The notes: generated by a model from the letters alone, not told the origin. DNA of 64,000 bases from a bacterium (GCA_037139335.1 JBAXGO010000002.1:851-64850); one strand, 5' to 3'; shown: positions 14 through 41,522, counted from the stretch's first letter. Made by a program: numbers and translations.

Positions 14-1006
14 ATGATAACACTAATCCACGGTTCTGATGTATATTTTTCATACCTTAAACTTAATAAGCTAAAACAAGAATATATTGACAAGGGTTAT
101 GAAGTGAAGATAATCAATGTTGATGATGAATTTGAAGTAAGTGATCCATCTAGCTTATTTGCAATATTATCAGAACAAGATTTATTCGCTACTAACAAAG
201 TACTTATTTTAAAAAGAATAGCATCTGCTGATTATTTTTATAAATTAGGAAAAGCATTAAAAGAGTCAACTAAACTTTTTGATGCTTTGAAATCAAGTCC
301 TCACGAAATCATTTTATGGGAAGACAAAATTATTACAACAGCCAATCCTCTTTCAAAATTATCTAAACATATAATACCATTCAATGCACCTTCAAAAGAT
401 TATGAAGTAATGGGTTATATTTTGAAAAATTTTCCAGACTTATCACAAGAAATAAAAACAATAATGTCAAAGTTTTCTAAAGCTATGTTTCCAAAAGATA
501 AGAAATTATTTTTTAATACATGGGAATTAGCCACTGAAATTGAAAAATTAAAGATTATGCCAAAACAATATATTAGCAACGATGTAATGGCTGTTCAACA
601 AAATCAATCTTTATGGATGCTTGGTGATTATATTACAGCATATTTATTAGATTCTAAAGATGATAATTTAAAGAAGTTATTTGCATTTATAGATAATTTG
701 GATGAGGAAGTTATTTTTAAATTAAACGCAATTCAGAATCATATTTCAGATATTATCGCTACGAAAAGATCTAAAAATGATAGTAGTGTAAAAGATGTAT
801 TTTTCAAACCAAACAGAAATTTTATATATTCTAATATTCTACGATACTGCGATAAAATTAATATGAATACATTATATGAACTTTATAAAAACAGCTTAAT
901 TGTTGAATATTATTTGAAAAACGGCTTAATCTCAGAGAAAGTAGCATTGATGAGTATATTCTTATACGATTCTAAATCAATGAGTTTGGAATTGCTCTCT
1001 GAGTAG
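14..1006 (+). CDS. holA: DNA polymerase III delta subunit (HolA)-like protein
   Basis: 330 aa. N-terminus MITLIHGSDxY...LF resembles the HolA clamp-loader delta N-terminal domain. Size and C-terminal helical region are consistent. Its 3-prime end overlaps the convergent VirB4-like gene. Confidence 0.45.
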   Translation: MITLIHGSDVYFSYLKLNKLKQEYIDKGYEVKIINVDDEFEVSDPSSLFAILSEQDLFATNKVLILKRIASADYFYKLGKALKESTKLFDALKSSPHEIILWEDKIITTANPLSKLSKHIIPFNAPSKDYEVMGYILKNFPDLSQEIKTIMSKFSKAMFPKDKKLFFNTWELATEIEKLKIMPKQYISNDVMAVQQNQSLWMLGDYITAYLLDSKDDNLKKLFAFIDNLDEEVIFKLNAIQNHISDIIATKRSKNDSSVKDVFFKPNRNFIYSNILRYCDKINMNTLYELYKNSLIVEYYLKNGLISEKVALMSIFLYDSKSMSLELLSE

Positions 1007-3329
1007 GTTGTTGAGATTCGATAAATTCTTCCTTCTTATCATGTGTTTCCTGAGGACGAGTACTACATAATTTATATTCTTGATCGCTAGCTTTAATTTC
1101 TATAGCTACATGGTTATTGTCGGCAAAGAAAAGCCCCATTCCGACACCCGCACCAAGAAGTAAACTTTTTTCTCCATCAGAAAGATAAAATACCTTTTGT
1201 AATTTATCAATTGCTGTAGGATGTTGTTTCAGAAGTACTTGAATAGAAGAATTTGTAACAACTGCAACACCAATATCTGACTGCAAAAAGTCTTCAACAT
1301 TTTGAGAAATTACAGTAAGTCCTAAATAATATTTTCTAGCTCTTTTGGCAATAGAGTTAATAAATAAAGCACTTTCTGGATATCTCATTAGAAGCCATGC
1401 TTCATCAACAATTAGTATTCTTTTTCGAGGCTCTCTTTTCACCTTATTCCATATGAAATCCATCATAAAGTACATCGCCAATGGTTTGAGCTCATCAGAA
1501 AGATCTCGGATACTAAATACGGTAAAGGGATTATTAAGATCTACATTAGTTTTCTTGTCAAAAATTCCAGATGCAGAACCTATGATAAATTTTTCTAATC
1601 TATCAGCAAGTCCCAAAGCTTCTGGCTCAATCATTGCTTTGAAAACTTTGTATAAATCCTCCATTCTAGGAGCCTCTAATTTATGTGTTGCAGGATTATT
1701 TGTAATTCCTTTCTCAAAATATGCCTGACGAATAGCTCTTTCTAATATCGCCATTTCTGAATTGGTCATTTGACCAAAAGCAAGTTTGAAAAATCCAATC
1801 AATGATAATTCTTTAAGTTTCAGCTCGTCCTCATTACTATCCATAATTCCAGATAATTCAAATGGATTTACTTTATTTGAACCATCTTGAGAAAATGAAA
1901 TAAAAGCTCCACCAATAGATCTAGCTAATCCTTGATACTCATTTTCAGGATCAATAACAATGACTTCTGTACCAAGCATCAAACTTCTAATAGCTTCAAG
2001 TTTAACCATAAAACTTTTACCAGCACCCGAAGTTGCAAATACAACCATATTTGCATTCGGCATTGCAAAACGATCAAAAATTACTAATGACCTGTTATAT
2101 GTATTGATACCATACATTATTCCTTTGTCCATTGATAAATCTGAAGATGTAAATGGAAAAGTATTAGCAATTGATGTAGTATCCATATTCCTTACTTTGA
2201 AAAGCTTATCTACACCAACAGGGATAGAGGATTGAAAAGCTTTTTCCATAGCAAGTGATGACGTTTTTGCTGATATTTCTTTAGATGCTAATATAGATAG
2301 AAGGGCTTGTGTCATATTATTTAATTCTTTGACACTATCTGCTTTCATAGTTATATACAAAGCAAAGTTAAACCATTTTTCTATTCCAGAAGCTAATAAT
2401 TCTTGTTGTCGTATAGCATCTTGAAGTGAAACTTTGATATAGGCATCAGGAACACGACCTCTTTCCAAATCTAAATTTAAACTTGCTTCAAATTCTGAAA
2501 TTTTTTGTCTTAATTTTTTAACAATTTCACCAGAATTAATTGGATAATAAAACATACTTATATCCAATGCTTCTTCGTAATTTACAATTTGCTCAAGCAT
2601 TCCTGGATTAGAGAATTTATAATCAATTGCGAAAATAGTTCGAATAAATTTATTTCCAATTCTCATTTCATTAAAATCGACTTCAATAGCTGATGGTGCA
2701 ATGAAATCTTGTACACTAATAGATCCTTCATCAACAATAGAAAAATCATCATCTTGACCTGTTGTTGAGTTATTTGTTTTAAATATTTTATCTCCTAAAC
2801 CAAATGGAATAACACCAGCTAAAATTTCTTTCATAACCGAGTTTTTTCCACCCGATGACTTATTAGATTTTGATTCCTCTGGTGTTGAAATTTTATTCAT
2901 AGGAACCATATGATTCCTATTCGTATATACTTTGTCTGGCATTTGATTCTGAGCTGGTAAGTTCTGAACCATTCTTGTATTTGAAGCCATACCCGGTCTA
3001 GGTATTTGATTATTTTGATTTTGAACAGGAGCTTGCTGAATTGGCCTCTGATATGTAGGCATGTTATTTGGCAAAGGCTGATTATATGTTTCTGAAGGTT
3101 GATTCGAATAAACATTTTGATTAACCTGATTCAATGGCGCATAATTTTGTTGCTGTGGAATATTTTGTCCTGAATTATATGCTGAAGAATTGTAAGTGCT
3201 TGGATCAGCTTGTTCAAAAGGTCCAGAAGAATTTGTATTTCTAGATCCAGGATTAAAAGCTCCTACTGGATTAGGTAAAACCGAAGACGGGTTATCGTTT
3301 TTATTTTTTGTTTTATCAAATAATCCCAT
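972..3329 (-). CDS. VirB4/TrbE/CagE-family (type IV secretion/conjugation) ATPase with Q/N/P-rich low-complexity N-terminal extension
   Basis: 785 aa. Walker A FATSGAGKSF, Walker B RILIVDEAW and VirB4-type C-terminal motifs (GLTVISQNVEDF, YLSDGEKSLLLGAG) are present. The first ~170-200 residues are a Q/N/P/S-rich low-complexity region with no stop codons despite the AT-rich genome. Confidence 0.75.
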   Translation of the reverse strand: MGLFDKTKNKNDNPSSVLPNPVGAFNPGSRNTNSSGPFEQADPSTYNSSAYNSGQNIPQQQNYAPLNQVNQNVYSNQPSETYNQPLPNNMPTYQRPIQQAPVQNQNNQIPRPGMASNTRMVQNLPAQNQMPDKVYTNRNHMVPMNKISTPEESKSNKSSGGKNSVMKEILAGVIPFGLGDKIFKTNNSTTGQDDDFSIVDEGSISVQDFIAPSAIEVDFNEMRIGNKFIRTIFAIDYKFSNPGMLEQIVNYEEALDISMFYYPINSGEIVKKLRQKISEFEASLNLDLERGRVPDAYIKVSLQDAIRQQELLASGIEKWFNFALYITMKADSVKELNNMTQALLSILASKEISAKTSSLAMEKAFQSSIPVGVDKLFKVRNMDTTSIANTFPFTSSDLSMDKGIMYGINTYNRSLVIFDRFAMPNANMVVFATSGAGKSFMVKLEAIRSLMLGTEVIVIDPENEYQGLARSIGGAFISFSQDGSNKVNPFELSGIMDSNEDELKLKELSLIGFFKLAFGQMTNSEMAILERAIRQAYFEKGITNNPATHKLEAPRMEDLYKVFKAMIEPEALGLADRLEKFIIGSASGIFDKKTNVDLNNPFTVFSIRDLSDELKPLAMYFMMDFIWNKVKREPRKRILIVDEAWLLMRYPESALFINSIAKRARKYYLGLTVISQNVEDFLQSDIGVAVVTNSSIQVLLKQHPTAIDKLQKVFYLSDGEKSLLLGAGVGMGLFFADNNHVAIEIKASDQEYKLCSTRPQETHDKKEEFIESQQPTQRAIPNSLI

Positions 3330-3345
3330 CTGGCAGTAAATTAGT

Positions 3346-3843
3346 TTATTTCTTTGTAACCGAAACTATAATCTTTGCAGTCTTTATTATATTACCATTC
3401 ATTTCATATGCTGGCGAGAGAACAGTCAGTATTTTATTATCTTCACCATTTTCTTGAGTAGCTACAACTTCAGCTAGGTTAGGATCATAATTCTCCCCAA
3501 TTTTTAATTCAACACGTCGAACTCCTTCTGTTGCTATTAAAATATCTAACTGCTGAAGAATATTATTTAGAATTTGAACATGTTCATCTTCTCCTTCATG
3601 ATTTTCAATAACTACATTATAAGTATCAATAATATTTATAATTTTTAATATTATCGATATCTTACCTTTTTGTTTATCCAAATCAACATTTCTTCTAACA
3701 TTCACCAACTCTGCTAATACTCTAATATATGAATCTTGAATTTTGTTATATTCTTCTTCAGTATATGTTTTTTCTTCTTTTTGCAAAACTTCTTCAGAGC
3801 CTTCAATATTTTCAATATCTATATTTTGTTTATCATCCGACAT
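3346..3843 (-). CDS. grpE: GrpE nucleotide-exchange factor homolog (orphan, no dnaK adjacent)
   Basis: 165 aa. Aligns by eye to GrpE: [21 protein letters not shown] matches [29 protein letters not shown] matches DPNVHQAI; C-terminal [20 protein letters not shown] matches [20 protein letters not shown]. Stop lies 16 nt upstream of the VirB4-like start. Confidence 0.7.
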   Translation of the reverse strand: [165 protein letters not shown]

Positions 3844-3847
3844 AATA

Positions 3848-3961
3848 TCAAGCTAATATTAATAAAATAATTGTTGTTGATACGACAACTCCAAGGAAAA
3901 CAAAGGCTAGTGGTAATACAACATCAACTTGTTCGTCCTGAATTTTCAACTTAACAGGCAT
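3848..3961 (-). CDS. Unannotated 37-aa single-TM micro-protein (MPVKLKIQDEQVDVVLPLAFVFLGVVVSTTIILLILA)
   Basis: Found by hand translation of the 130-nt gap between the 63-aa gene and grpE; it is below the ORF-track length cutoff. Hydrophobic C-terminal helix. Its TGA stop sits 4 nt from the grpE start and its start is 12 nt from the upstream gene stop. Confidence 0.3.
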   Translation of the reverse strand: MPVKLKIQDEQVDVVLPLAFVFLGVVVSTTIILLILA

Positions 3962-3972
3962 ACTAATTTTTT

Positions 3973-4164
3973 TCATTGCGCTTTCTTATTTTTATATATA
4001 TTCGAAATATAATCGATATCAAAAGTTTTTTCAATCGCTGTAATATTTTCATTGACATCATCAGGAATATGAGAACTTGTTACTTCTCTCCATATTGAAA
4101 AAAATACCCAAGATATTATAGTAATAAGCGTTAGGATTGTAAACATTAGTACAGACTTAGACAT
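3973..4164 (-). CDS. Small (63 aa) single-TM membrane protein
   Basis: N-terminal hydrophobic helix LMFTILTLITIISWVFFSIW. Overlaps the upstream gene by 8 nt, which suggests translational coupling. Confidence 0.4.
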   Translation of the reverse strand: MSKSVLMFTILTLITIISWVFFSIWREVTSSHIPDDVNENITAIEKTFDIDYISNIYKNKKAQ

Positions 4165-4906
4165 AATTATAGGCTAAGAAATTAATTGTTGCTGTGAATT
4201 GCGATGCTTCTTGAGCTTGGACATTCATTTGAGATGGAGATATTATAGAAATCCTCTCTATCGTATATAAATGACTCGAACTAGATATAGATTTAATTAG
4301 TTTTATTATATTATCGTGAGTTATAGATTTTACTATTATCTGATATGAAGAAGCCTTTGATTTCCCAGATTTTGGCTCTCCTGGTGTATTTTGAACCCCC
4401 AAAAATTTTAGAACTTCTACTTGTGTAGATGTTTTATTAGAAAATGAAATTATATCTCGATAAACGACTTCTTCATTTAAAGAATCAGGAAAATACTTAT
4501 TAATAAAAAAATCTACATATTCATTTGCTCCTCCAGCTGAGATCGGATTTTCAACTGTATATTTTAGATTATTTAAATTTGACAGCTTTTCATCTTGTTT
4601 TTCCTTAACAACCTTATAATCTTCAATTTTTTTAGCAATCTGAGTTATAGATGTTACCGTAGGCAAAATTGCAAAAAAAATAAGAATTGCTATAAAAGCA
4701 AATGTTAATGTCATCAAAGTATATGTTTTACCTGCTTTACTGCCCGATATTAGAGAATAAGCAGCTTTGAAAGGATTGCCTTTTAGAAATCGTTTCGTAG
4801 AAAAAGTAGACTCCTGTTTAACAGTTTGTTCTGTCAAATTTGAATCATTTGCAATTTCTTCTTTATTTTCTTTAATTATTTTTTCTTTTTTCGCCTTATC
4901 ATCCAT
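4157..4906 (-). CDS. Bitopic membrane protein (cytoplasmic N-terminus, one TM, coiled-coil, C-terminal extracytoplasmic domain); PilO/VirB8-like topology
   Basis: 249 aa. K/E-rich N-terminus, TM segment LMTLTFAFIAILIFFAILPTV, then heptad-like KKIEDYKVVKEKQDEKLSNLNNLK. Start overlaps the stop of the upstream gene (TAATG). Confidence 0.5.
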   Translation of the reverse strand: MDDKAKKEKIIKENKEEIANDSNLTEQTVKQESTFSTKRFLKGNPFKAAYSLISGSKAGKTYTLMTLTFAFIAILIFFAILPTVTSITQIAKKIEDYKVVKEKQDEKLSNLNNLKYTVENPISAGGANEYVDFFINKYFPDSLNEEVVYRDIISFSNKTSTQVEVLKFLGVQNTPGEPKSGKSKASSYQIIVKSITHDNIIKLIKSISSSSHLYTIERISIISPSQMNVQAQEASQFTATINFLAYNYV

Positions 4907-5502
4907 TATTTTCTAGTAATTTTAAAAGTAAAATCAGAAAGACCATCAGATGCAGTACTTACCGTTTGCTCTAAAATTGAGATACCACTAGAATTTGGTG
5001 TACTAGCTAATATATTTTTACTCAAAGAACTTTTATATTCAATTAAAGCATCACTAGTTCCACGTCCATTAATATTTATAGCTTCAGTTTTAATCAAAGG
5101 CTGATCTGTAGAACTTAAAAGACTGTAGCTTACTGCAGAAACGATAACATTTTTAGGAGCTAGACTAAAGAATTTTGACATTTCGCCCATAAGGACACCA
5201 GAATACGTTGAATCTAAATTTTTTGAAATTTGAATTTTGGAAAATATACCTAAGTATATTTTTTCTTCGCTACTTTTACTTTTAATAATAAGATTTCTAT
5301 CATTAATTTTTTCTGTTAAATCATTTAAATTTTGATCTAGAAAAAATCTAGCTACAAAAGCTGACAAAACGACCATTTCTACACCGATAACAATATAACG
5401 CCCAACAGACACAATCCATTTATATAATTTATCTACAAATGGTTCTTCTGCGTTATACGTATAAAATAAGTTAAAAGTTTTATATGGCAGTTTAGTTTTC
5501 AT
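4906..5502 (-). CDS. Bitopic membrane protein (short cytoplasmic N-terminus, one TM, extracytoplasmic S/T-rich domain); PilN/VirB8-like topology
   Basis: 198 aa. TM segment GRYIVIGVEMVVLSAFVARFFL followed by a coiled-coil-like segment and a Ser/Thr-rich domain. First gene of the minus-strand operon. Confidence 0.5.
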   Translation of the reverse strand: MKTKLPYKTFNLFYTYNAEEPFVDKLYKWIVSVGRYIVIGVEMVVLSAFVARFFLDQNLNDLTEKINDRNLIIKSKSSEEKIYLGIFSKIQISKNLDSTYSGVLMGEMSKFFSLAPKNVIVSAVSYSLLSSTDQPLIKTEAININGRGTSDALIEYKSSLSKNILASTPNSSGISILEQTVSTASDGLSDFTFKITRK

Positions 5503-6111
5503 ACATATTTATAACATCAAAGTATGGTGATATTCAATGTTAAAATTTTTAAAATAGTTTGAATAAACTCAGACTACCATAGGGAGATTGTCGATATAGT
5601 GTTTATATAAGGCTTTTATGGTAAAATTGTCGTTGATGTAATTTTTTATACTAAATATATGGCTAAGAGAATAAGAGAACTAGGGGCGAAGCATCTACGA
5701 CAAAAGATTTGAAGAACAAAGAATTAAATTCGTATGTAACAAAAAGAGCACTAGCACATTTAGTAATTATACCTACAGTTGTATATAACGCCTATGGTTG
5801 TATATCCCCGTTTGGCGAAAAACTATATAATACTATTTTTTATAAATGGGCATCAGAACCTGAAACATAAATGACATATTCAGCAGTAGGCTTAGTTTTT
5901 TCACTAGGTGCTTTTTGCCTAAGTTTTGCACACCTTGATTCAAGATTTCATCGTTCATATCGTAATCATTTAAATGATACTATAGAATCAACATCTGCTA
6001 AAAGATCAAGCCTAAAAGAATGAAATTATCTTTTAACATCTTTTAATTCTACGATATATAACTTTTTGACATTCATGATAGAATACGGAATATTAAATTT
6101 GAAGATCTGAT

Positions 6112-11532: not shown

Positions 11533-11551
11533 ACCTCAAATCAAAAATTAA

Positions 11552-11579
11552 AAAGGAGCTGAAAGGCTCCTTTTTTTTT
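11552..11579 (+). terminator. Intrinsic terminator after the RRM gene
   Basis: GGAGC-TGAAAG-GCTCC hairpin followed by T9. Confidence 0.7.
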
Positions 11580-11609
11580 CGTTGTTTTTTTCCGATTCTT
11601 AGAAGTAAA

Positions 11610-12345
11610 GTTAAAAATTTGTCACCCTGAGTACTTCGGCAAGCTCAGTATATGCTTTATTGAAAGGAATTCCCCCTAATGTCATTCCTGCGAAAGCAGG
11701 AATCCATGTAATCTCTTATCACTTTCTATGTCATGCCGCACTTCCTTTCTATGTCATCCCGAATGAAATGAGGGATCTCGTCGGATTAAAGCTTAGCAAC
11801 ATATCGTCTTATTAATTAACGAGATTTCTCACTAACGTTCGAAATGACATAGATCTTCGAAGAGCACACCACAGGCTCATCCCCTTAATCTGTCATTCCT
11901 GCGAAAGCAGGAATCCATGCATTCTTGTTGTCACCCTGAGCTTGTCGAAGGGAGACTGTCGGAAAATTTCAAAACAAAGAACGGAATGAACACACCCCGC
12001 CTCTTCTTTCGCTAAAGCTACAGAAGACAAGTTCGGCACCCCTCTTCCCAGAGGGGAATTTTAAAAATGAAACAAAAAAATATGTCACCCTGAGCTTGTC
12101 GAAGGGCGACTGTAGGATTTTTTCCCTCCTTACCGAGGAGGAAACCAAGGGGGGCAAACCCCTAAACTGACCTCACTGCCTCGCTTTGCTCAGCACCTCT
12201 CCTTTCGAAGGAGAGGATTGGGGAATGAATACAATAACCTCTCTTTCCCGCAAGCGGGACATCTCCCCTTTTGTAAAAGGAGAGAATAATAAGAGCTCAC
12301 CACAGAATCCTCCAACGGTAAGGGATTTTTAGAAGACAAGTTAGG
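11610..12345. repeat. GC-enriched ORF-free island of related short hairpin/direct repeats (REP/MITE-like or structured RNA)
   Basis: A 28-mer GTCATTCCTGCGAAAGCAGGAATCCATG (8-bp stem plus GAAA loop) occurs identically at 11681-11708 and 11892-11919. GTCACCCTGAGCTTGTCGAAGGG(A/C)GACTGT occurs at 11930 and 12084, with a variant at 11622. AGAAGACAAGTT(C/A)GGCA occurs at 12022 and 12331. Multiple further GC hairpins are present. Confidence 0.5.
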
Positions 12346-12586
12346 CAACCTTCTTTACAACCATAGATTTAATAAAATGTACTATTTGTAAAAGTACTAA
12401 TGGGAAAAGTATAACTGCATTGATGAATCCAGCGATAAAGACAAGATATAAGTATTCATCACCATTACAGAATTCCGAACATATAGGTCTATTAACACTA
12501 ATAATGGAAAAAACAATAATCAAAACGATAAGTGTGAACGTTAGAATTATAGTTAAAATATTTATAACTTTATCAATTTTTTTCAT
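12341..12586 (-). CDS. Small two-TM membrane protein
   Basis: 81 aa with two hydrophobic helices. Confidence 0.4.
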   Translation of the reverse strand: MKKIDKVINILTIILTFTLIVLIIVFSIISVNRPICSEFCNGDEYLYLVFIAGFINAVILFPLVLLQIVHFIKSMVVKKVA

Positions 12587-12605
12587 TTTACAATAATTAA
12601 TTCAC

Positions 12606-23094: not shown

Positions 23095-24969
23095 CTATAA
23101 ATCTACAACTATTGAATTAGAGTATATTGAAATACCGTCATGGTAGAAACCAATAATTCTGACATAATAAACACCTACTCCAGATAATGGTGAAAGATTT
23201 GCCGACAAAAGATCGGTATCAGTTATATAAACACCATAATCTCCTAATCTATACGGATCTTCTGGATTAGGATTTTTTGACCACAACACTTTAAATGAAT
23301 TTGGTTTTTCACCATTGAATGACCATTTAACATTAGTAAAACCATCATAATTCAAGGTTATCGATGATGGAACTACTGTAGCCGTAGGTAACGGCGTAGG
23401 CGTTGGCGTTAGAATTGGTGCTGTAATTGTAACAGTATTGCTATATATACCACATTTATTACCAATATACTGACAAATCCTAGCATAGTAGACCTTACCA
23501 TCAGAAACCAACCATTTATAACTTCTTAAATCACCATCGTCAAGATATATGAAATTACTACCAGGATAAACTGGTGATGGTTTGGAATCTAATAATACTT
23601 TATATCCTTTACTTACATTTGCACCATATACACTCCATTCAAAATTTAAACCATCTGATGATTTTGTTACTACTAAAGTTAACGTTCCCAAATTCGGTAT
23701 CGGTGTTGAAGTGGGCTTAGGTGTTGGGGTAACTTTCTTTGTAATACTAGGTGTTGGAGAAGGTGACGACATTATAATTCGACTCTTAATAGTAGGATTA
23801 ATAACGTCTGTTATTTTTGGCGATTTAGTTACATATATATTCTTAATTGTTTTATGATTCTGATCTGAAACGGCTTCTACTAAAATTATGTTATTTCCAT
23901 CATGTAATGTCACTGAGAATTCAAAATATCCATTTTTAGTAGCAATTTCATTATTATTAATATATATTTTTGTATTTATATCAGTGCTACCTTTAATGAC
24001 AATATTATCTTCATTCGTAATAGTATTATTTGAGGGTGAACTTATTGTTAATGTAGGAACGGATATGTTAACCAAAACACCCATATTTTTATTATAATTC
24101 GGATTTTGTTCATCCTCTTGCTTATTCCATACTACAAAATTATTCTTTAACATTTCTTCTGATGAAATAGGATCTATAATACCAATTGCTGTTTGATCAT
24201 CGTTATTTTCAAAATAATATTTATTGCCTTGATCTACAGAAACTTCACTATTTAATGGTTTTCCCGATATATTTACGACATTATCATAGACCTCAACGCC
24301 TTTTTTACCAACTCTATTTATTGTTAAATATGCAGTTCCCAAGGAAATATAACTTATATCATTACTTTTGACTTGAAAACTTCGATCTAGCTTTATTACT
24401 CTAGAATATATTTCCCCTGTATTATTAGTAAAGATTAGATCATGAGGATTCAAAGATGTTATTTCTAATTCAGTATCATCGCCAAGACGCAAAGAACTAC
24501 CTTCACCGAGTCTCACCACAGCCTTTCCTTTTCCATTAACTCTTAAAGTATCACCTTCCGCAAGCGTTGATTGTTCATCAAGTTTTAACCAAGCCCCATC
24601 TAATTGTTTTCTTTCAACTTCCCCTTCAACATATTCTAAACTAGCTGTCGTATTATTATCTAGATTACCTTTTGGACTTTCTTTATTTGGTAATAATAAT
24701 AATATAGAAACAGCTAAAAGTAAAAAAAAGAACATAAAAGAAATAGCAATAGTTCCGTATAAGAAATTTTTATTTTTGTATAAGCAAACTATTTTTCTTA
24801 GTATGGAGGCTTCTGTATTTAAGTTAATACTTTGTATATGTATTTTATTTAGTAGTGAATCTTCAAAACCTCCGGACATAAACTCCATACAGTCTTTTTC
24901 TTCAATCCTTGCAGACTTAAGCAATTTTTCTGCTGTTATATTATATTTTTGTTTATTTTTTTCTGTCAT
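23095..24969 (-). CDS. Anti-sigma factor with FecR-like domain and large extracytoplasmic Ig/beta-rich region
   Basis: 624 aa. Cytoplasmic N-terminus, one TM, FecR-like LRVNGKGKAVVRLGEGSSLRLGDDTELEI, and PTPTP-type linkers. Immediately downstream of the ECF sigma gene. Confidence 0.55.
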   Translation of the reverse strand: MTEKNKQKYNITAEKLLKSARIEEKDCMEFMSGGFEDSLLNKIHIQSINLNTEASILRKIVCLYKNKNFLYGTIAISFMFFFLLLAVSILLLLPNKESPKGNLDNNTTASLEYVEGEVERKQLDGAWLKLDEQSTLAEGDTLRVNGKGKAVVRLGEGSSLRLGDDTELEITSLNPHDLIFTNNTGEIYSRVIKLDRSFQVKSNDISYISLGTAYLTINRVGKKGVEVYDNVVNISGKPLNSEVSVDQGNKYYFENNDDQTAIGIIDPISSEEMLKNNFVVWNKQEDEQNPNYNKNMGVLVNISVPTLTISSPSNNTITNEDNIVIKGSTDINTKIYINNNEIATKNGYFEFSVTLHDGNNIILVEAVSDQNHKTIKNIYVTKSPKITDVINPTIKSRIIMSSPSPTPSITKKVTPTPKPTSTPIPNLGTLTLVVTKSSDGLNFEWSVYGANVSKGYKVLLDSKPSPVYPGSNFIYLDDGDLRSYKWLVSDGKVYYARICQYIGNKCGIYSNTVTITAPILTPTPTPLPTATVVPSSITLNYDGFTNVKWSFNGEKPNSFKVLWSKNPNPEDPYRLGDYGVYITDTDLLSANLSPLSGVGVYYVRIIGFYHDGISIYSNSIVVDL

Positions 24970-24984
24970 TTCAGTATTATAACG

Positions 24985-25560
24985 TTAAGTCATATCGAAT
25001 ATTTCAATACCAGGGAAATTTTTATTATACTTGTCCCTGAAGGATTTTAAGGCTCTGTGAGTAAGTAACGCTACATTCGATTTAGTCATTCCAAGAATTT
25101 CTGCTATCTCTTCGTTATCTCTTTCCATAAAATATTTTAAACTAATTACTTCTTGGTATCTAGGTTTAAGTTTTTTCATGACTTCAGCAATCATTTTTTG
25201 GGATTCTGTAATATACGCTTGTTTCTCTGTATTTGTTTTTTCATCAATAATTTCATCGTCCTCATTGGAAGAAACATAGTGATATTTTTTATTTTTTCTA
25301 TAAAAATCAATAATTAGGTTATGCGCAACTCTGTATAACCATGAACCAAAACGAATATTTTCTTGAAGCTTGTATTTACTCAAATCTCGAGTTACTTTCA
25401 AAAACACTTCGCTTGTAATATCTTCTGCCAATTCTTTATTAGCCAATCTATTTAAACAATAGCCAAATATTTTTGGAAAATAATACCTATATACTTCATC
25501 AAAATAATGAATATCTTCTTTAGACTTTTCTATAAGTTGTAATTCTTTTTCAAAATCCAC
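24985..25560 (-). CDS. ECF (sigma-70 family, group 4) RNA polymerase sigma factor
   Basis: Sigma-70 region 2 (FGYCLNRL...DITSEVFLKV) and region 4 HTH (EIAEILGMTKSNVALLTHRA) are present. Confidence 0.8.
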   Translation of the reverse strand: MDFEKELQLIEKSKEDIHYFDEVYRYYFPKIFGYCLNRLANKELAEDITSEVFLKVTRDLSKYKLQENIRFGSWLYRVAHNLIIDFYRKNKKYHYVSSNEDDEIIDEKTNTEKQAYITESQKMIAEVMKKLKPRYQEVISLKYFMERDNEEIAEILGMTKSNVALLTHRALKSFRDKYNKNFPGIEIFDMT

Positions 25561-25824
25561 TTTGGAATAATAAATTTATATATAAGCGCCCCGATCTAAA
25601 GATTATACCTTTTTATATAAAGACACTCTGCATATCATAATATTTTATTAATTATTGTTTTCAAACATATAATTTGCAAACAATAATTATACCTCATATA
25701 TATAGCTTTGGCACTCTCTCGGACAGATTCATTATACTACCCAAGCTTTCTTGCCAAGCCATTGACAGGCGAGCCCCGTCTAATATATATTTAGACATTC
25801 AAGTAAATATTAAATTAACTATGT

Positions 25825-26439
25825 ATGGCAGATATACTTCATCCAATACAACAAAAAATATATGATTTAATAAAAAAAGGATATCAAGATCCTTTATCGT
25901 TACGAGAAATTGCCATATTGATAGGTGAAAAAAATCATCAAAATGTAGCTCACCATATAAAACAGCTTGAGAAAAAAGGATATCTCAGAAAAAACCCTCA
26001 AAATGCACAAGAAATTGAGGTTTTAAAAGATCCCGTCGAAAATGCTGTCTATTTAAATGTATTTGGATTTGCACAATGTGGACCAAGTGGTCTTTTGGCA
26101 CAAGATAATATCTTTGATAAAGTAATAATTTCATCAAAGATGTTTGGAATGGGTAATTCTGATGATTTTTTCTGTGTTAAGGCAAGAGGAGAATCGATGG
26201 AACCGCAAATTTATGAAAAAGACTTAGTAATAGCCAAAAAACAAATGGATGTAGAGAATAATCAAATTGCAATAATAGTCCATAATGAAATGCCAAAAAT
26301 AAAGAAAATATTAAAAACAGGTGATAACATCGTTCTTTTTTCGCTCAATCCATCTTTTTCACCAGAACAGGTGAAAGATAATGATACCTTTCAAATTTAT
26401 GGTTTGGTAAAACATGTGATACGCTTTAATGTATCATGA
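25825..26439 (+). CDS. lexA: LexA-like S24 repressor
   Basis: N-terminal wHTH and C-terminal S24 peptidase with ARGESM (Ser) and downstream Lys are present. Overlaps the dinB start. Confidence 0.75.
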   Translation: MADILHPIQQKIYDLIKKGYQDPLSLREIAILIGEKNHQNVAHHIKQLEKKGYLRKNPQNAQEIEVLKDPVENAVYLNVFGFAQCGPSGLLAQDNIFDKVIISSKMFGMGNSDDFFCVKARGESMEPQIYEKDLVIAKKQMDVENNQIAIIVHNEMPKIKKILKTGDNIVLFSLNPSFSPEQVKDNDTFQIYGLVKHVIRFNVS

Positions 26440-27725
26440 GTACAAAACCGCGTGTTATATTTCACGTGGATATGAATTCATATTTTGCCTCTGTAGCACA
26501 GCACTTTCACGAAGAGTTAAGAAATAAACCAATAGGAGTTATGGGCAAAGGGAAAGGAACGTTCGTAATTGCAGCATCCAAAGAAGCCAAAAGATATGGC
26601 GTAAAAACTGGAATGCATAAAAATGAAGCAACTAAACTATGCCCAAATATTATATTTTTTCCACCTGAATTTGAAAATTATGTTTTTATTACAGGAAAAA
26701 TACTAGAAATTTTCAATGATTTTTCACCTGTTATAGAACCATTTTCCATAGACGAAGCATTTTTGGATATGACAAATTCATATTGGATAAAAATAGGCAT
26801 GAATCCTGTCGATATTGCGTATAGATTGAAATTGGAGTTAAAAGAAAGACTAGGTGATGTAATTACGTGTTCTATAGGTATCGCAGATAATAAACTAATG
26901 GCAAAGTTTGGTTCTGATATGAAGAAACCCAATGGACTCGTATATCTACAACCAGATAATTACATAAATGTACTAGATCAATTCCCACTTGATGATATTT
27001 GCGGCATAGGAAGAAGGACTTTGGAGCATTTGCAATTTATAAATATCAATACATTTGCCGAACTACGGAATACTCATTTTTCTATTTTGAAAAGAGAATT
27101 TGGAAATGTAGAAGGACGTTTTCTTTACCTTGCATCTAGAGGTCTAGATTACCATCCTGTGGATACTGGTGCATTTTTTGAAGATCCCAAAAGTTTATCT
27201 AATAGCGAGACATTCACTGAAAATAAATCTGGAAGTGCTCTTCGATCAAGCATATATAAATTATGCGAAAAAGTCAGCTTAAGATTACGGATCAAAGGCT
27301 TATTCTGCAAAAACATTTCTTTTTTAATCAAAGATAAATCTTTTAACTGTTTCTCTTATGATCAAAAATTACCATCATATACCAATAATACACTGGATAT
27401 TTTTCATAGTGTAATAAAAAACATTCCGAATAATTATGTTTCTAAATTTGTTTGTATTGCTGCAACCAACCTATCCCGCCAAAAAGATCAAGATCTATTT
27501 GATGAAACAGAAAGAAAAGATAATTTACAAAAAGCACTTGATAATATAAACCAAAAATACGGACATTTTACGGTTATACCAGCATCAATCAACAAACCAG
27601 ATGGACCAGCTGTAGACGTGCCTTTTTCAGCATTAGATAATGATGCAAAGACAGGTAGAAATTTAGCAGAATTGGCAGAAAAGAATTTAGATAAAATAAA
27701 ACATAAAATTCTTCATAGCTCGTAA
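26436..27725 (+). CDS. dinB: Y-family DNA polymerase IV
   Basis: HVDMNSYFASV, SIDEAFLD and a little-finger domain are present. Confidence 0.85.
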   Translation: MSTKPRVIFHVDMNSYFASVAQHFHEELRNKPIGVMGKGKGTFVIAASKEAKRYGVKTGMHKNEATKLCPNIIFFPPEFENYVFITGKILEIFNDFSPVIEPFSIDEAFLDMTNSYWIKIGMNPVDIAYRLKLELKERLGDVITCSIGIADNKLMAKFGSDMKKPNGLVYLQPDNYINVLDQFPLDDICGIGRRTLEHLQFININTFAELRNTHFSILKREFGNVEGRFLYLASRGLDYHPVDTGAFFEDPKSLSNSETFTENKSGSALRSSIYKLCEKVSLRLRIKGLFCKNISFLIKDKSFNCFSYDQKLPSYTNNTLDIFHSVIKNIPNNYVSKFVCIAATNLSRQKDQDLFDETERKDNLQKALDNINQKYGHFTVIPASINKPDGPAVDVPFSALDNDAKTGRNLAELAEKNLDKIKHKILHSS

Positions 27726-37441: not shown

Positions 37442-40126
37442 TCAATTCCATAAATTAATCATTTTTGCAGAATAGAAGGCTGTCGTAAACCAAGCCCAAT
37501 TTTGAGAATAATAGTCATTTTCATTACCCCAATATTTTTCATCAATTAAACTTGAAGCAAATCTATTTTCATAAATATTTCTAGCTATTTCTTTATTGTC
37601 AAAATATGTAGAAAATAATGCACCGCTCTCTGTACTCAAACTACTATAGTCAACATATTTATCTCCATTCAATTTATAAACAGCATATAGTTTTTTATCT
37701 TTTTCAATTGTGTTTTTATAAAAAGAAGAAATCTTTTGTAAATATATTTTTGCATTTGAGTTTTCATACCATTGCGCATCCCACGATAATCGTATGTTTA
37801 AGCGAAATGCGTCAAATCCATAAACATCACTTTTGTTATCATCAGCTTTTAAATAGTTTTCGTTAGTTGTGACGATAAACCAGTCTGGTAATAAATATGT
37901 ATTATTATCAAAAGTGTGTAAGGAAACTACTTTATTAATAATCGTATAAACGTCATCAGCAAGTTGATTCCATGGATGTTCTTTATCAATATTAGAAAAT
38001 ATTCTATATGATGCAGGTGAGAAATATGAAGGATTTATTAAATAATTTCCATTAATTTCTGAATTGGCTCTCGATGTCATGTAATACGTTCCATTAATTT
38101 GTACTGCTTCCTTAGTCCAAATGTCATTTATTATATTTTTCGCTAAGCTATAATACCTTTGATCTCCCCATTTTTTATATGCGAATAAAAGACTTAATGC
38201 TATGTCTTCATCAGAATCTGATGCTGATGAAGTATCAAGTATATTCAAATTTCCTAAATTATCAGTACCATAAACCCATGAAAATAAATTCTCCTCTTTT
38301 CTTTTTAAATTATTTAGAGACCATCGTAAAACCAAATCAAAATATTCTTTATCATTCATATAGACAGACCTTAATAGAGAATAGGCTTGCCCTTCTGATG
38401 TAGTTCTATTATTTTGCTCTGGATCTATTGTTCTGCCTTCAGACAAAATAAATTTTCCTTTATACCAATTCCATGTAGAGTTCAAAATATTGCTTTTATT
38501 ATTTACCGCCCTTATTTCTACAGGATAATCTTGACCTGATAAGTTATTTTCTTCAAATTTTTTTATAATTATTGAATTCTCATAAGCACTTTGTACAATT
38601 GGCATTTTTTCTTTCATTACAGTATCGTGAAATGCCGGTGTAACAATCAAATAGTCTATATTTTGCCAATCATTTTTCAATACTACATTTTTAATTTCGG
38701 GATCATTATCAACCTTCCAATAATATTGAGCTTTCACTTCCTGTATATCTTTTGTAGATTTATTGAGATCCAAAAATGCATAATTATCAATAACAATTAT
38801 TGATTTTTCATCTATATTATTTTTCACCCATTCTATCGCACTATTTTGATTATTTGTTTGTGCTAAAGTAAAAATATCTTTTGAGACTATCAATTCGAAA
38901 CAGAATACTGATAATAAAAAAGTTATAAATACAAATTTGAATATATAAGGAAAAAAAATTTTTTTATTTATAATAAATTTGATAAATTCAGAATAAAACA
39001 AACCAATATTTATAGCACTTAAAGGTATTATTGGTAACATATACCAATCTAATGTTTGTGCATAAAGTAAATATCCTATATATATTATTGAAAGAAAACT
39101 AAAGAATAATAAATATTTTTTTCTGAATATTATGTTTAATATTGTTATTACTGGTATTAAGATAATAAGATATGGATCAAATTTTAACCATGTATTCCAT
39201 AAAGATAATTCAAATGTACTATCTGTCGATAAGAAAAAGCTCCCATTCCTAGATGATTGAAAGGTAAAAGCTTCTAATAAACTTACATGAGGTGCATTAC
39301 CTCCAAAGATAGTTCCAGAAGGAAATAATTCACCACGTAAAAAAGCAAATACTGGATATAGTGATATTAGAAATAATGAAACTCCGCCCCAAATAAACGC
39401 ATTATATTTTTTATTTATTTTATCTGAATTAATTATGACAAAGATTAAAATTATAGGAAAAAATATTATTGCAGATTCTTTTGATAACACGGCAGCACCA
39501 AATAATATTGACGAATACGCCATATTTTTTATTGATGATTTATGAATCAAAAAATATAAGGATGCTATTAAAAAACAAACCATGATGTTATCAAGAAAAA
39601 CTCTTCTTTGTAGAATTATTCCAAGAGGTGATAATGTAAAAACAAGTGAAGCTAACACGGCGGCATCTAATCTTTTTGTAATTTTTTTTACAATTTTAAA
39701 AAGAAAATATATAGTTATAATGTGAAGAATTAGCATCAAGACCCGTCCAGAATTTATTGAAGTACCAAACGCATAAAAACTTCCTAAAATGATATTCCAA
39801 AATCCTATTACTAACCAACCAAAAGGTGAGTGATCATACCAATATGTATATGGTGCCAATTTACCATCGCTAACTACTGACCATGCTTGAGACATGTATG
39901 TTCCTTCATCTTCCCTATATGACGGATATCCAAACATATTTGCACCATGAACAATAACAGCAATTATTATTACGAAAATTAAAATAATTGAACTTTTATG
40001 TATATTTAAATATTTGAAAATGTTGGCTAATAAATCTTTTTTTTGTATGAAAGCTTTTGAAGATAATATAATTTTATTTACTCTTTGTAGAAGTAAATGA
40101 AATTTTTGTTTTAATAATTTATTCAT
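37442..40126 (-). CDS. Fusion protein: N-terminal GT-C-like polytopic membrane domain + C-terminal glycoside hydrolase family 8 domain
   Basis: 894 aa with ~12 TM in the first ~420 residues and an YREDEGTY acidic loop. The C-terminus carries a GH8 signature ASDSDEDIALSLLFAYKKW (compare A-[ST]-D-[AG]-D-xx-[IM]-A-x-[SA]-[LIVM]-[LIVMG]-x-A-xxx-[FW]) and TSEGQAY. Confidence 0.65.
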   Translation of the reverse strand: MNKLLKQKFHLLLQRVNKIILSSKAFIQKKDLLANIFKYLNIHKSSIILIFVIIIAVIVHGANMFGYPSYREDEGTYMSQAWSVVSDGKLAPYTYWYDHSPFGWLVIGFWNIILGSFYAFGTSINSGRVLMLILHIITIYFLFKIVKKITKRLDAAVLASLVFTLSPLGIILQRRVFLDNIMVCFLIASLYFLIHKSSIKNMAYSSILFGAAVLSKESAIIFFPIILIFVIINSDKINKKYNAFIWGGVSLFLISLYPVFAFLRGELFPSGTIFGGNAPHVSLLEAFTFQSSRNGSFFLSTDSTFELSLWNTWLKFDPYLIILIPVITILNIIFRKKYLLFFSFLSIIYIGYLLYAQTLDWYMLPIIPLSAINIGLFYSEFIKFIINKKIFFPYIFKFVFITFLLSVFCFELIVSKDIFTLAQTNNQNSAIEWVKNNIDEKSIIVIDNYAFLDLNKSTKDIQEVKAQYYWKVDNDPEIKNVVLKNDWQNIDYLIVTPAFHDTVMKEKMPIVQSAYENSIIIKKFEENNLSGQDYPVEIRAVNNKSNILNSTWNWYKGKFILSEGRTIDPEQNNRTTSEGQAYSLLRSVYMNDKEYFDLVLRWSLNNLKRKEENLFSWVYGTDNLGNLNILDTSSASDSDEDIALSLLFAYKKWGDQRYYSLAKNIINDIWTKEAVQINGTYYMTSRANSEINGNYLINPSYFSPASYRIFSNIDKEHPWNQLADDVYTIINKVVSLHTFDNNTYLLPDWFIVTTNENYLKADDNKSDVYGFDAFRLNIRLSWDAQWYENSNAKIYLQKISSFYKNTIEKDKKLYAVYKLNGDKYVDYSSLSTESGALFSTYFDNKEIARNIYENRFASSLIDEKYWGNENDYYSQNWAWFTTAFYSAKMINLWN

Positions 40127-40127
40127 A

Positions 40128-41522
40128 CTATTTTTGCAACTCAGATAAAGGTATATTCATCTCATCTATTTCGTGCTGTCTGTGTGCATTAGTATGTTTT
40201 GTTTTTTCCCAACTGTTATTTTTTTTCAAATTTCTAAATATAGCTCTCATAGCACAGTAACTCAAAATTACTTGATAAGGAAAAAAAGTTAAAACTATAT
40301 TGAGAGGAACAAATATCGAATACTTAATTTTATACTGAGTTGTAAATTCATAAAGTCCTATATTATAGATTGCAATTTGTATAATTAAAATATACAAAGG
40401 TAGGATGGAAATTAATGCGATTGTTAGCGGAATTTTGACCATTATTATCATAAAAATAGAAAAGGGAATATAAACTAAAAAGAGTGCTTGAGCACGAGAA
40501 ATAGTTAATATATACAGTGCTAATATTTTATGAGTAAAGCTTGGTAATTTTTTCCATTCTTTTTTGTTTAAAACTTGTATGAAACCCTGTATCCAGCGTG
40601 TCCTTTGTTTTATAAATTGTTGTAAATCTGGAGGAGTTTCTTCTCTGGTTGCATGTTCTTCATCATATATTACATTTATCTTAGCCCCAATTTGACTTAA
40701 TCTAATACCAATATCCGCATCTTCTGCAAGACATTTAGGATCCCAGCCTCCTACTTTTTTTAATGTTTCTCTTTTAAAAAAAATTGTATTTCCCCCTAGG
40801 GGTATGACACCTTGATTTGCAAAAAATGGTAGCGACGATTTAAACCAAAAATAATATTCCAATACATTGAATACAGAAAACCAATTTGATTTATAGTTCA
40901 TTAACTGAACACCCGACTGAACTACATCTGATTTTTTTTGAATCATAACTGTATTTATAATTTCATATAGCTTTTTGTGAGGTTCATCTTCAGCATCAAA
41001 AACAGCTATAACATCATTTTTCGCATATTGAAGCGCATAGTTGAGAGCATGTGGTTTATTAATAGGTGGTTCAGAATAAATATGAAGACTTATATTTCTT
41101 TTCCCAATTTCTTTTATAACATCATTCACTTTATGAATTGTTCCTTTATCATCATCGGAACAAATGACGATAATCTCTTTCATATGCTCGGGATATACCA
41201 TATTTGAGACTGCAAGAATTGTATCTCTGATTACTACTTCTTCATGTCTTACAGGAATTAAAGCTGTGAAAGTTAATAAAGGCGAAATAATTTTTTTGGG
41301 AGATTTAAATCGCTTCATTTTTTTTGGACTATCCCAAGCATAGAGCATTAAAAAAATAGCAAATATTCCTTGAACTGTTAACAATAATGATACAATTAAT
41401 ACACAAATAACCAGCAAAGAATTTAACCTATTTCCCAGATTCTTATAAAGTAAGAGAGAAGTTACGATAATTATAAAACTAATTATTAATGTTGAAATAA
41501 CTTTCTTAAATCTTTTATTCAT
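40128..41522 (-). CDS. Processive family-2 glycosyltransferase (cellulose/chitin/PNAG-synthase-like, QxxRW)
   Basis: 2 N-terminal TM, a GT-A domain with CSDDD, DAED, AEDAD and QRTRW motifs, then 3-4 C-terminal TM. Stop overlaps the start of the GH8 fusion gene. Confidence 0.75.
   Translation of the reverse strand: MNKRFKKVISTLIISFIIIVTSLLLYKNLGNRLNSLLVICVLIVSLLLTVQGIFAIFLMLYAWDSPKKMKRFKSPKKIISPLLTFTALIPVRHEEVVIRDTILAVSNMVYPEHMKEIIVICSDDDKGTIHKVNDVIKEIGKRNISLHIYSEPPINKPHALNYALQYAKNDVIAVFDAEDEPHKKLYEIINTVMIQKKSDVVQSGVQLMNYKSNWFSVFNVLEYYFWFKSSLPFFANQGVIPLGGNTIFFKRETLKKVGGWDPKCLAEDADIGIRLSQIGAKINVIYDEEHATREETPPDLQQFIKQRTRWIQGFIQVLNKKEWKKLPSFTHKILALYILTISRAQALFLVYIPFSIFMIIMVKIPLTIALISILPLYILIIQIAIYNIGLYEFTTQYKIKYSIFVPLNIVLTFFPYQVILSYCAMRAIFRNLKKNNSWEKTKHTNAHRQHEIDEMNIPLSELQK

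Follow-up and report, generated by a model that had tools for sequence, protein, structure and literature searches.

Why should a VirB4-type ATPase be encoded in one array with the chaperone cofactor GrpE and four small membrane proteins, and does such an array amount to a new translocation machine? The question arises from a 64,000-nucleotide stretch of bacterial DNA (GCA_037139335.1, JBAXGO010000002.1:851-64850; hereafter the window), in which positions 972 to 5502 carry six genes on the minus strand. An earlier note on this DNA had described a tight operon of two bitopic proteins with PilN/PilO- or VirB8-like topology, a 63-aa transmembrane (TM) protein, a hand-found 37-aa TM peptide, a bona fide GrpE homologue and a VirB4/TrbE-family ATPase, and had found that the combination matched no known system. 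Judging from the nearest homologues of its proteins, the window appears to be a Patescibacteria (Candidate Phyla Radiation, CPR) chromosome close to Dojkabacteria/WS6. The array itself is probably a lineage-specific composite operon, in which a Dojkabacteria-related clade of Patescibacteria has joined three known CPR modules. It is established what the parts are, that they are tightly packed, that the clade keeps their order and that outside the clade the modules lie apart.

Open reading frame (ORF) calling recovers six co-directional minus-strand ORFs spanning 5502 to 972, encoding in order p198 (PilN-like), p249 (PilO-like), p63, p42, GrpE and VirB4. The coordinates agree with those first noted, and the same order is found at five independent loci, which upholds the description of a tight six-gene operon. 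The successive junctions measure -1, -8, -4, +4 and +16 nt, no terminator-like site was found inside the array, and all six genes, including those for the 63- and 42-aa proteins, are present in independent public gene calls for the same contig. A TM scan finds one hydrophobic segment in each of the four small proteins (p198, p249, p63 and p42). The flanks are housekeeping genes. On one side, holA is convergent and shares 35 nt with the 3' end of virB4, and a GtrA gene lies past it; on the other, gatB is divergent and lies 609 bp upstream of the operon. This 609-bp intergenic region (5503..6111) is the sole sizeable non-coding gap adjoining the array and presumably contains the promoter; a sigma-70 scan gave 34 sites against 32.8 expected and is uninformative in such AT-rich DNA, the GC content being about 30% throughout the window. 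Co-transcription of the six genes is likely.

The last gene (972-3329) encodes a 785-aa protein that appears to be a VirB4 of the monoderm MPF-FATA class, CD1110 family, rather than an FtsK/HerA-type ATPase, because it exceeds the 325-bit cut-off of NCBIfam NF045971 (VirB4-like conjugal transfer ATPase, CD1110 family) with 352 bits over residues 201-759, finds Thermoanaerobacter VirB4 4ag5 as its best PDB match (E 4.6e-48), and retains intact Walker A (ATSGAGKS, residues 432-439, window 2013-2036) and Walker B (ILIVDE, residues 638-643, window 1401-1418) motifs. The same score and structural match bear out the family first assigned to it. Weaker matches to other VirB4/TraC/TrbE models follow, the next best being the NCBIfam family of Mycoplasma integrated conjugative element (ICE) VirB4 proteins, and the HerA/DUF87 matches are far weaker than those to VirB4 models in both Pfam and NCBIfam. 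The N-terminal CagE_TrbE_VirB domain (PF03135) scores 20.2 bits (E 6e-4, residues 224-370) against a gathering score of 21, and it is among the precomputed domain matches of close VirB4 homologues. Among the matches listed, the nearest homologues with a source name come from Dojkabacteria, WS6 or other Patescibacteria, or carry generic bacterium/JGI labels; an exact-sequence look-up with this VirB4 matched no record. An identity as CedB was rejected, since the protein reaches only 43.8 bits on NF041017, which has a cut-off of 700.

The core of this VirB4 (residues ~200 to 760) is preceded by an apparently disordered, low-complexity extension rich in Q, N, P and S (residues 1 to ~190, window 2763-3329). 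Prion-like Q/N/P/S-rich N-termini of 150-200 aa also occur in the homologues P0003, P0005, P0006, P0008, P0010 and P0022, and the long extensions consist of about 37-60% Q+N+P+S. VirB4s encoded beside PrgI and TraC-like genes carry only ~40 extra N-terminal residues; the long form coincides with lost PrgI/TrsD adjacency.

The core is also unusually well conserved. Between the window and the related locus L010 it is 91% identical, against 72% for gatB and 48% for holA; between the window and the more distant L011 it is 71% identical, against 46% for gatB and 66% for ParA. The core thus evolves more slowly than gatB, holA and ParA, and is more constrained than gatB, which would imply very strong purifying selection. 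The accessory proteins of the operon, by their identities in the window-L010 pair, seem to evolve fast: 40-42% for PilN, 39% for PilO, 46% for p63 and 52% for GrpE.

The first two genes encode bitopic proteins that appear to belong with PilN and PilO, the heterodimeric membrane "alignment" scaffold of type IV pilus (T4P) machines. In p249 (4157-4906), a disordered N-terminus of ~60 aa leads into a TM segment (residues 63-81), after which come a coiled coil and then a ferredoxin-like domain. A word-indexed homology search retrieved no protein other than p249 itself, and an exhaustive HMMER search covering 1.84 billion representatives returned 71 homologues; the Pfam PilO family (PF04350) matches 31 of the 50 homologues scanned, with a best E-value of 2.8e-16. 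An AlphaFold2 model built on the homologue alignment (pLDDT 84.6) has Myxococcus xanthus PilO (3jc8_Oa) as its top Foldseek match at E 7.5e-7, and Pseudomonas aeruginosa PilO (2rjz) matches with a root-mean-square deviation of 2.6 Å. Sequence family and predicted fold both point to a PilO-like protein.

The neighbouring p198 (4906-5502) has a TM segment (residues ~33-55) that precedes a long helix and an alpha/beta domain. A profile of three p198 orthologues retrieved two proteins, P0130 and P0131, that both carry Pfam PF05137 (PilN) and an INLLP motif (link E 1e-15), and PilN matches were found in 4/10 aligned members of the p198 family (best E 1.1e-12). The AlphaFold2 model (pLDDT 74.6) consists of a single long TM/coiled-coil helix and, after it, a beta-beta-alpha-beta-beta domain. 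Its top Foldseek matches include PilO 3jc8_Oa at rank 1, PilN 4bhq and PilO 2rjz, and clostridial collagenase entries are mixed in with them at similarly weak E-values. The layout fits PilN as well: the gene immediately precedes pilO, and the protein combines a short cytoplasmic N-terminus and one TM segment with a coiled coil and a ferredoxin-like domain. Family and model evidence together suggest that p198 is PilN-like. Its N-terminal motif is FNLF where the canonical PilN motif is INLLP; members of the operon clade have FNLF or FNLL, and distant members have INLLP.

Taken singly, p198, p249, p63 and p42 give no Pfam or NCBIfam match, and three-sequence profiles of p198 and p249 find nothing meaningful among PDB sequences. 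A VirB8-like identity was rejected for both bitopic proteins. No VirB8, TraM or PrgL appears among the top 50 PDB matches of either model, the Pfam matches are to PilN and PilO, and PilN/PilO entries are among the top structural ranks. Of the two topologies first suggested, the PilN/PilO half is thereby borne out by Pfam and Foldseek, and the VirB8 half falls for want of any such fold match.

The two mini membrane proteins differ in how widely they are distributed. The product of p63 (3973-4164), which has an N-terminal TM segment, is the third member of a conserved PilN-PilO-p63 trio. Its BLAST homologues are 22-46% identical, further positional members were added by alignment, and a p63-like gene with a conserved Trp in the TM segment follows PilO across the longer metagenome loci that were mapped. 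The 63-aa TM protein of the earlier note is accordingly a called gene with one hydrophobic segment and homologues after PilO elsewhere. The hand-found peptide is likewise a conserved TM gene, p42 (3848-3976), but its length has to be revised: translation gives 37 aa from the second Met and 42 aa from the first ATG, 42 aa is also the length in public gene calls, and only the first Met is present in the L016 orthologue. A C-terminal TM segment preceded by an LPLA motif characterises p42, whose sequence and position are conserved across the window, L010, L011 and L016. It was not seen in the distant PilN-PilO-p63 trio loci, and appears to be specific to the window's clade.

The fifth gene (3346-3843) encodes a 165-aa protein that seems to be a genuine, divergent, full-length GrpE, as originally proposed. 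It scores 65.2 bits against Pfam PF01025 (gathering score 25.8 bits) over profile positions 12-164 of 165, and its residues 9-163 align full-length to the solved GrpEs 3a6m, 1dkg and 4ani from Thermus, E. coli and Geobacillus. The best NCBIfam equivalog (PRK141xx models) reaches 46.5 bits against a cut-off of 231, and the score lies below the cut-off in every such model; this low score reflects the strong GrpE divergence that is common in CPR. GrpE is the nucleotide exchange factor of DnaK. Neither dnaK (HSP70), dnaJ nor hrcA was found in the window, and there is no second GrpE in it. The gene is probably the cell's only, housekeeping copy.

The components that would complete a known machine are missing from the neighbourhood. 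A Pfam scan covered almost all ORFs of at least 90 aa in the window, those left out being mainly short ORFs nested in larger genes. In these 64 kb, Pfam and NCBIfam find no VirD4, relaxase, VirB6, VirB1, PrgI or TrsD, and no VirB3, VirB8/PrgL or PrgH partner for VirB4; Pfam finds no pilin and no PilB, PilC, PilT, PilM or PilD, and there is no second PilN or PilO. Nor did tblastn find any match in the window when PrgI and TraC-like proteins from relatives served as queries. The absence of VirD4, relaxase, VirB6, VirB1 and pilin remarked on earlier is thereby upheld by these scans, and VirD4, relaxase, VirB6 and pilin are absent just beyond the window as well, as far as the 66 kb of contig extend.

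Comparison with relatives shows where the modules sit. The six-gene order recurs next to gatB at L010, L011, L016 and L019/L020, the last resembling L010, and is confined to loci at which the VirB4 core has 71% identity or more. It persists in L011, where gatB is 46% identical to that of the window. The whole region is conserved, not the operon alone, since gatB, a helix-turn-helix (HTH) gene, ParA and, at three loci, holA are syntenic in the clade too. Outside it, VirB4s at 63-65% identity, which have the long low-complexity N-terminus, stand solitary among housekeeping genes (secE-nusG, greA/serS), and those at 53-57% identity lie in PrgI-TraC-like(TrsD)-VirB4 operons, the arrangement published for Patescibacteria. 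A scan of genome contigs with VirB4 returned only the 53-55% PrgI-TraC-like type and no relatives of the operon. Gene order is therefore conserved across five loci of a narrow clade, and outside that clade the three modules occur apart.

The PilN-PilO-p63 trio has a distribution of its own. A metagenome scan with the PilN alignment yielded 33 PilN-like loci, and PilO directly follows PilN in 28 of them, the remainder being truncated. In the distant loci the trio is followed by membrane-anchored Fn3/Ig-like/LPXTG surface proteins. No VirB4 occurs within 8 kb of the distant trios, the close relatives L019/L020 excepted and L018 being too short, and pilM does not adjoin pilN-pilO in any locus examined. 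In all six trio loci whose upstream sequence extends to 5 kb or more, the opposite strand carries a canonical hrcA-grpE-dnaK(-dnaJ) operon at a distance of 3-6.5 kb upstream; it is followed in the distant loci by murJ, with lepA or another gene before murJ in some, and then rpsT. With the heat-shock operon this close to distant trios (6/6 loci), grpE and the pilN-pilO trio look like old neighbours, and the presence of grpE near the trio in the window looks like inherited synteny.

The same neighbourhood is conserved in L021, L029, L030, L035, L040 and L046 (and in L023, L031, L032, L036 and L047). At L029:382-12875, for example, dnaJ-dnaK-grpE-hrcA and murJ occupy one strand, and rpsT, pilN, pilO and a p63-like gene the other, which continues with two or three membrane-anchored surface proteins of Fn3/Ig-like/CarboxypepD_reg or LPXTG type. 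No pilM, pilB or pilC is adjacent in this neighbourhood. From its gene content, it looks like an "orphan" PilN-PilO-small-protein module tied to surface proteins rather than a pilus locus.

Most of these parts have published counterparts in Patescibacteria. Chromosomal VirB4 proteins without a relaxase, derived from MPF-FATA systems, occur in 2,417 of 3,035 Patescibacteria genomes, typically beside TrsD, PrgI/VirB3, VirB6 and VirB2-like pilins, and this type IV secretion system (T4SS) was reported as essential for epibiotic growth in the Saccharimonadia strain Ca. Southlakia epibionticum (Quinonero-Coronel et al. 2025, PMC12102498). The window VirB4 resembles this system in its MPF-FATA ancestry, its chromosomal location, its housekeeping flanks and the lack of a nearby relaxase or coupling protein. 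It differs in that TrsD/TraC-like, PrgI/VirB3, VirB6 and VirB2-like pilin arrays are absent beside it, in that pilN, pilO, two mini TM genes and grpE precede it, and in its 190-aa Q/N-rich N-terminal extension. GrpE, PilN and PilO near virB4 are not mentioned in that report (PMC12102498), and a literature search for a GrpE-VirB4 link found only incidental co-mentions at the level of titles and abstracts.

PilN and PilO are CPR-enriched T4P components (PMC6744442), and model Saccharibacteria carry pilM-pilN-pilO inside pilus loci (PMC12206443). The window pair shares with the type IVa PilM-PilN-PilO subcomplex (3jc8, 2rjz, 4bhq) the adjacency of pilN and pilO and the bitopic layout with a coiled coil and a ferredoxin-like domain; family members have Pfam PilN/PilO matches, and the best structural matches include PilN/PilO entries. 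Unlike type IVa pili, the locus has no pilM, pilB, pilC, pilT, pilD or pilin genes nearby, INLLP is changed to FNLF, and the pair is followed by p63, a small TM protein of a kind not described in model systems. The GrpE, for its part, has the full-length architecture of those encoded in hrcA-grpE-dnaK-dnaJ operons, but its gene lies apart from hrcA, dnaK and dnaJ, between the p42 gene and virB4.

A further comparison is the Ced DNA import system of Sulfolobales, in which CedA, CedA1 and CedA2 work with the VirB4-like ATPase CedB and which depends on Ups type IV pili. Small membrane proteins, a VirB4-like ATPase, a T4P link and the lack of a relaxase make this a conceptual parallel only, because the window ATPase is not CedB and its small proteins have no match to curated families in Pfam or NCBIfam. 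The earlier note's statement that the combination matches no known system is thus wrong, given that relaxase-less chromosomal VirB4 systems (PMC12102498) and CPR PilN/PilO (PMC6744442) were already known. As far as could be found, what is undescribed is the arrangement pilN-pilO-mini TM-mini TM-grpE-virB4, which is confined to a small clade. The larger proteins of the operon are members of known families, and the operon does not look like a new machine.

In the composite reading, the first module would be the orphan PilN-PilO-p63 trio with the clade-specific p42, without pilM, pilB or pilC nearby. The second would be the cell's own GrpE, split from hrcA-grpE-dnaK-dnaJ by a local rearrangement of the ancestral neighbourhood in which grpE moved to the other side of the trio in the window's clade. 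The third would be the Patescibacteria-type VirB4, a hexameric ATPase that may power a chromosomal, relaxase-less T4SS-like translocon. The modules would work in their usual separate machines, and a common promoter may do no more than couple the expression of envelope and host-interaction functions in a genome that is very compact.

Several observations weigh against so loose an association. The junctions are very tight, with overlaps of 1-8 nt, and grpE and virB4 overlap by 4 nt (ATGA) in L011. The gene order has survived divergence down to 46% gatB identity; like the tight junctions, this would fit a functional link. The GrpE of the window's clade no longer has several canonical residues (the His of DPxxHEA, GY and RPA), the PilM-binding motif of this PilN is degenerate (FNLF, not INLLP), and this VirB4 type lacks neighbouring PrgI and TrsD and has gained a low-complexity N-terminus of 150-200 aa. 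The FNLF motif together with the VirB4 changes, namely PrgI/TrsD loss and the new N-terminus, could be a sign of new partners.

Such partners are central to the main alternative, a hybrid machine in which the PilN/PilO-like proteins with p63 and p42 would have replaced PrgI (VirB3-like), TrsD and VirB8 as the docking scaffold of VirB4. This substitution is possible but unlikely; the same low degree of confidence applies to the idea that this would make a minimal T4P/T4SS chimera, which would import or export macromolecules where the cell contacts its host. The tight six-gene operon, kept even in L011, would suit a hybrid machine, as would the absence of PrgI and TrsD beside this VirB4 type, unlike in the 53-57% group. 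The degenerate PilM-binding motif without an adjacent pilM, the new long N-terminal extension and the unusual constraint on the VirB4 core, 91% identical where gatB is 72%, point the same way. Against this, the VirB4s at 63-65% identity have equally long N-termini and yet are solitary, with no PilN or PilO nearby; trios elsewhere lack VirB4 within 8 kb in every case, and Fn3/Ig-like surface proteins come after them instead; and the whole region, not the operon alone, is syntenic in the clade. The fuller version, in which VirB4 swapped PrgI/VirB3 and TrsD for a PilN/PilO scaffold and two mini proteins while GrpE/DnaK handled unfolded cargo, must be considered rather improbable. If true, it would amount to a T4P-T4SS chimera of a kind not seen before, through which macromolecules are exchanged with the host cell. 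Distribution lends no support to the single machine of VirB4, GrpE and mini membrane proteins envisaged in the earlier note, because the order exists in a narrow clade only and the modules are apart outside it.

Less probable still is a dedicated GrpE, a specialised copy that would couple the DnaK cycle to VirB4-driven translocation or act on VirB4 itself. The model for such a role is the mitochondrial import motor, where Mge1/mtHsp70 unfolds or pulls substrates. Its appeal lies in grpE being directly upstream of virB4 in all five operon loci, overlapping it in L011, detached from dnaK and hrcA, and divergent in the window's clade, where the protein falls below all NCBIfam equivalog cut-offs and several canonical residues are changed. 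Yet no GrpE lies beside VirB4 in any relative outside the clade, and with hrcA-grpE-dnaK a few kb from distant trios, the proximity is most simply inherited. At the corresponding place in the operon, the L011 GrpE is canonical in motifs and retains GY...RPARV at its C-terminus; the copies of the window, L010 and L016 are more derived than it. The divergence, moreover, is that of fast-evolving housekeeping genes such as holA (52% identity for GrpE and 48% for holA between the window and L010), and two grpE genes would be unlikely in a genome of roughly 1 Mb.

An origin as a fragment of an ICE with an ordinary Gram-positive-type T4SS is suggested by the best curated VirB4 matches, a conjugal transfer ATPase family (CD1110) followed by the Mycoplasma ICE VirB4 family, but it was rejected as extremely improbable in view of the absence of relaxase, VirD4, VirB6, VirB1 and integrase from the 64 kb, the holA, GtrA and gatB flanks, the uniform GC of ~30% and the vertical conservation of the gene at the same chromosomal site in relatives, an exclusion that reaches as far as 66 kb of contig.

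Elsewhere in the window, a non-coding stretch of about 1 kb (11550-12600) is locally GC-richer (36% in the 10-12 kb bin) and holds short GC-rich repeats (TGTCACCCTGAGCTTGTCGAAGGG, TGTCATTCCTGCGAAAGCAGGAATCCATG) in several copies, both direct and inverted. They resemble repetitive extragenic palindromic (REP) elements or elements of the miniature inverted-repeat transposable element (MITE) type, and have no Rfam match. No tRNA gene and no Rfam family above threshold was found by tRNA and Rfam scans of positions 1-64000. At 37442-41522, a PMT_2 glycosyltransferase membrane domain and a glycoside hydrolase family 8 domain are joined in one 894-aa protein, and its gene lies directly downstream of a GT2 (cellulose/chitin-synthase-like) gene; the two may form a pair for exopolysaccharide synthesis and trimming. 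Two regulatory cassettes stand side by side at 23095-27725. The first pairs an extracytoplasmic function (ECF)-type sigma factor (24985-25560) with a protein that has a FecR/glucodextranase domain (23095-24969); in the second, the gene of a LexA-like repressor (25825-26439) overlaps that of a Y-family polymerase (26436-27725).

Patescibacteria rely on host cells, and to our knowledge two envelope machines have so far been linked to this lifestyle by experiment: the chromosomal VirB4 system and type IV pili. The operon joins parts of both with a chaperone cofactor, and so offers a natural test of whether the two are co-regulated or share components in some lineages. Even if it is only composite, the constraint on VirB4 is exceptionally strong here, its core evolving more slowly than gatB, and the neighbourhood of the Patescibacteria T4SS is far more fluid than published class-level pictures suggest.

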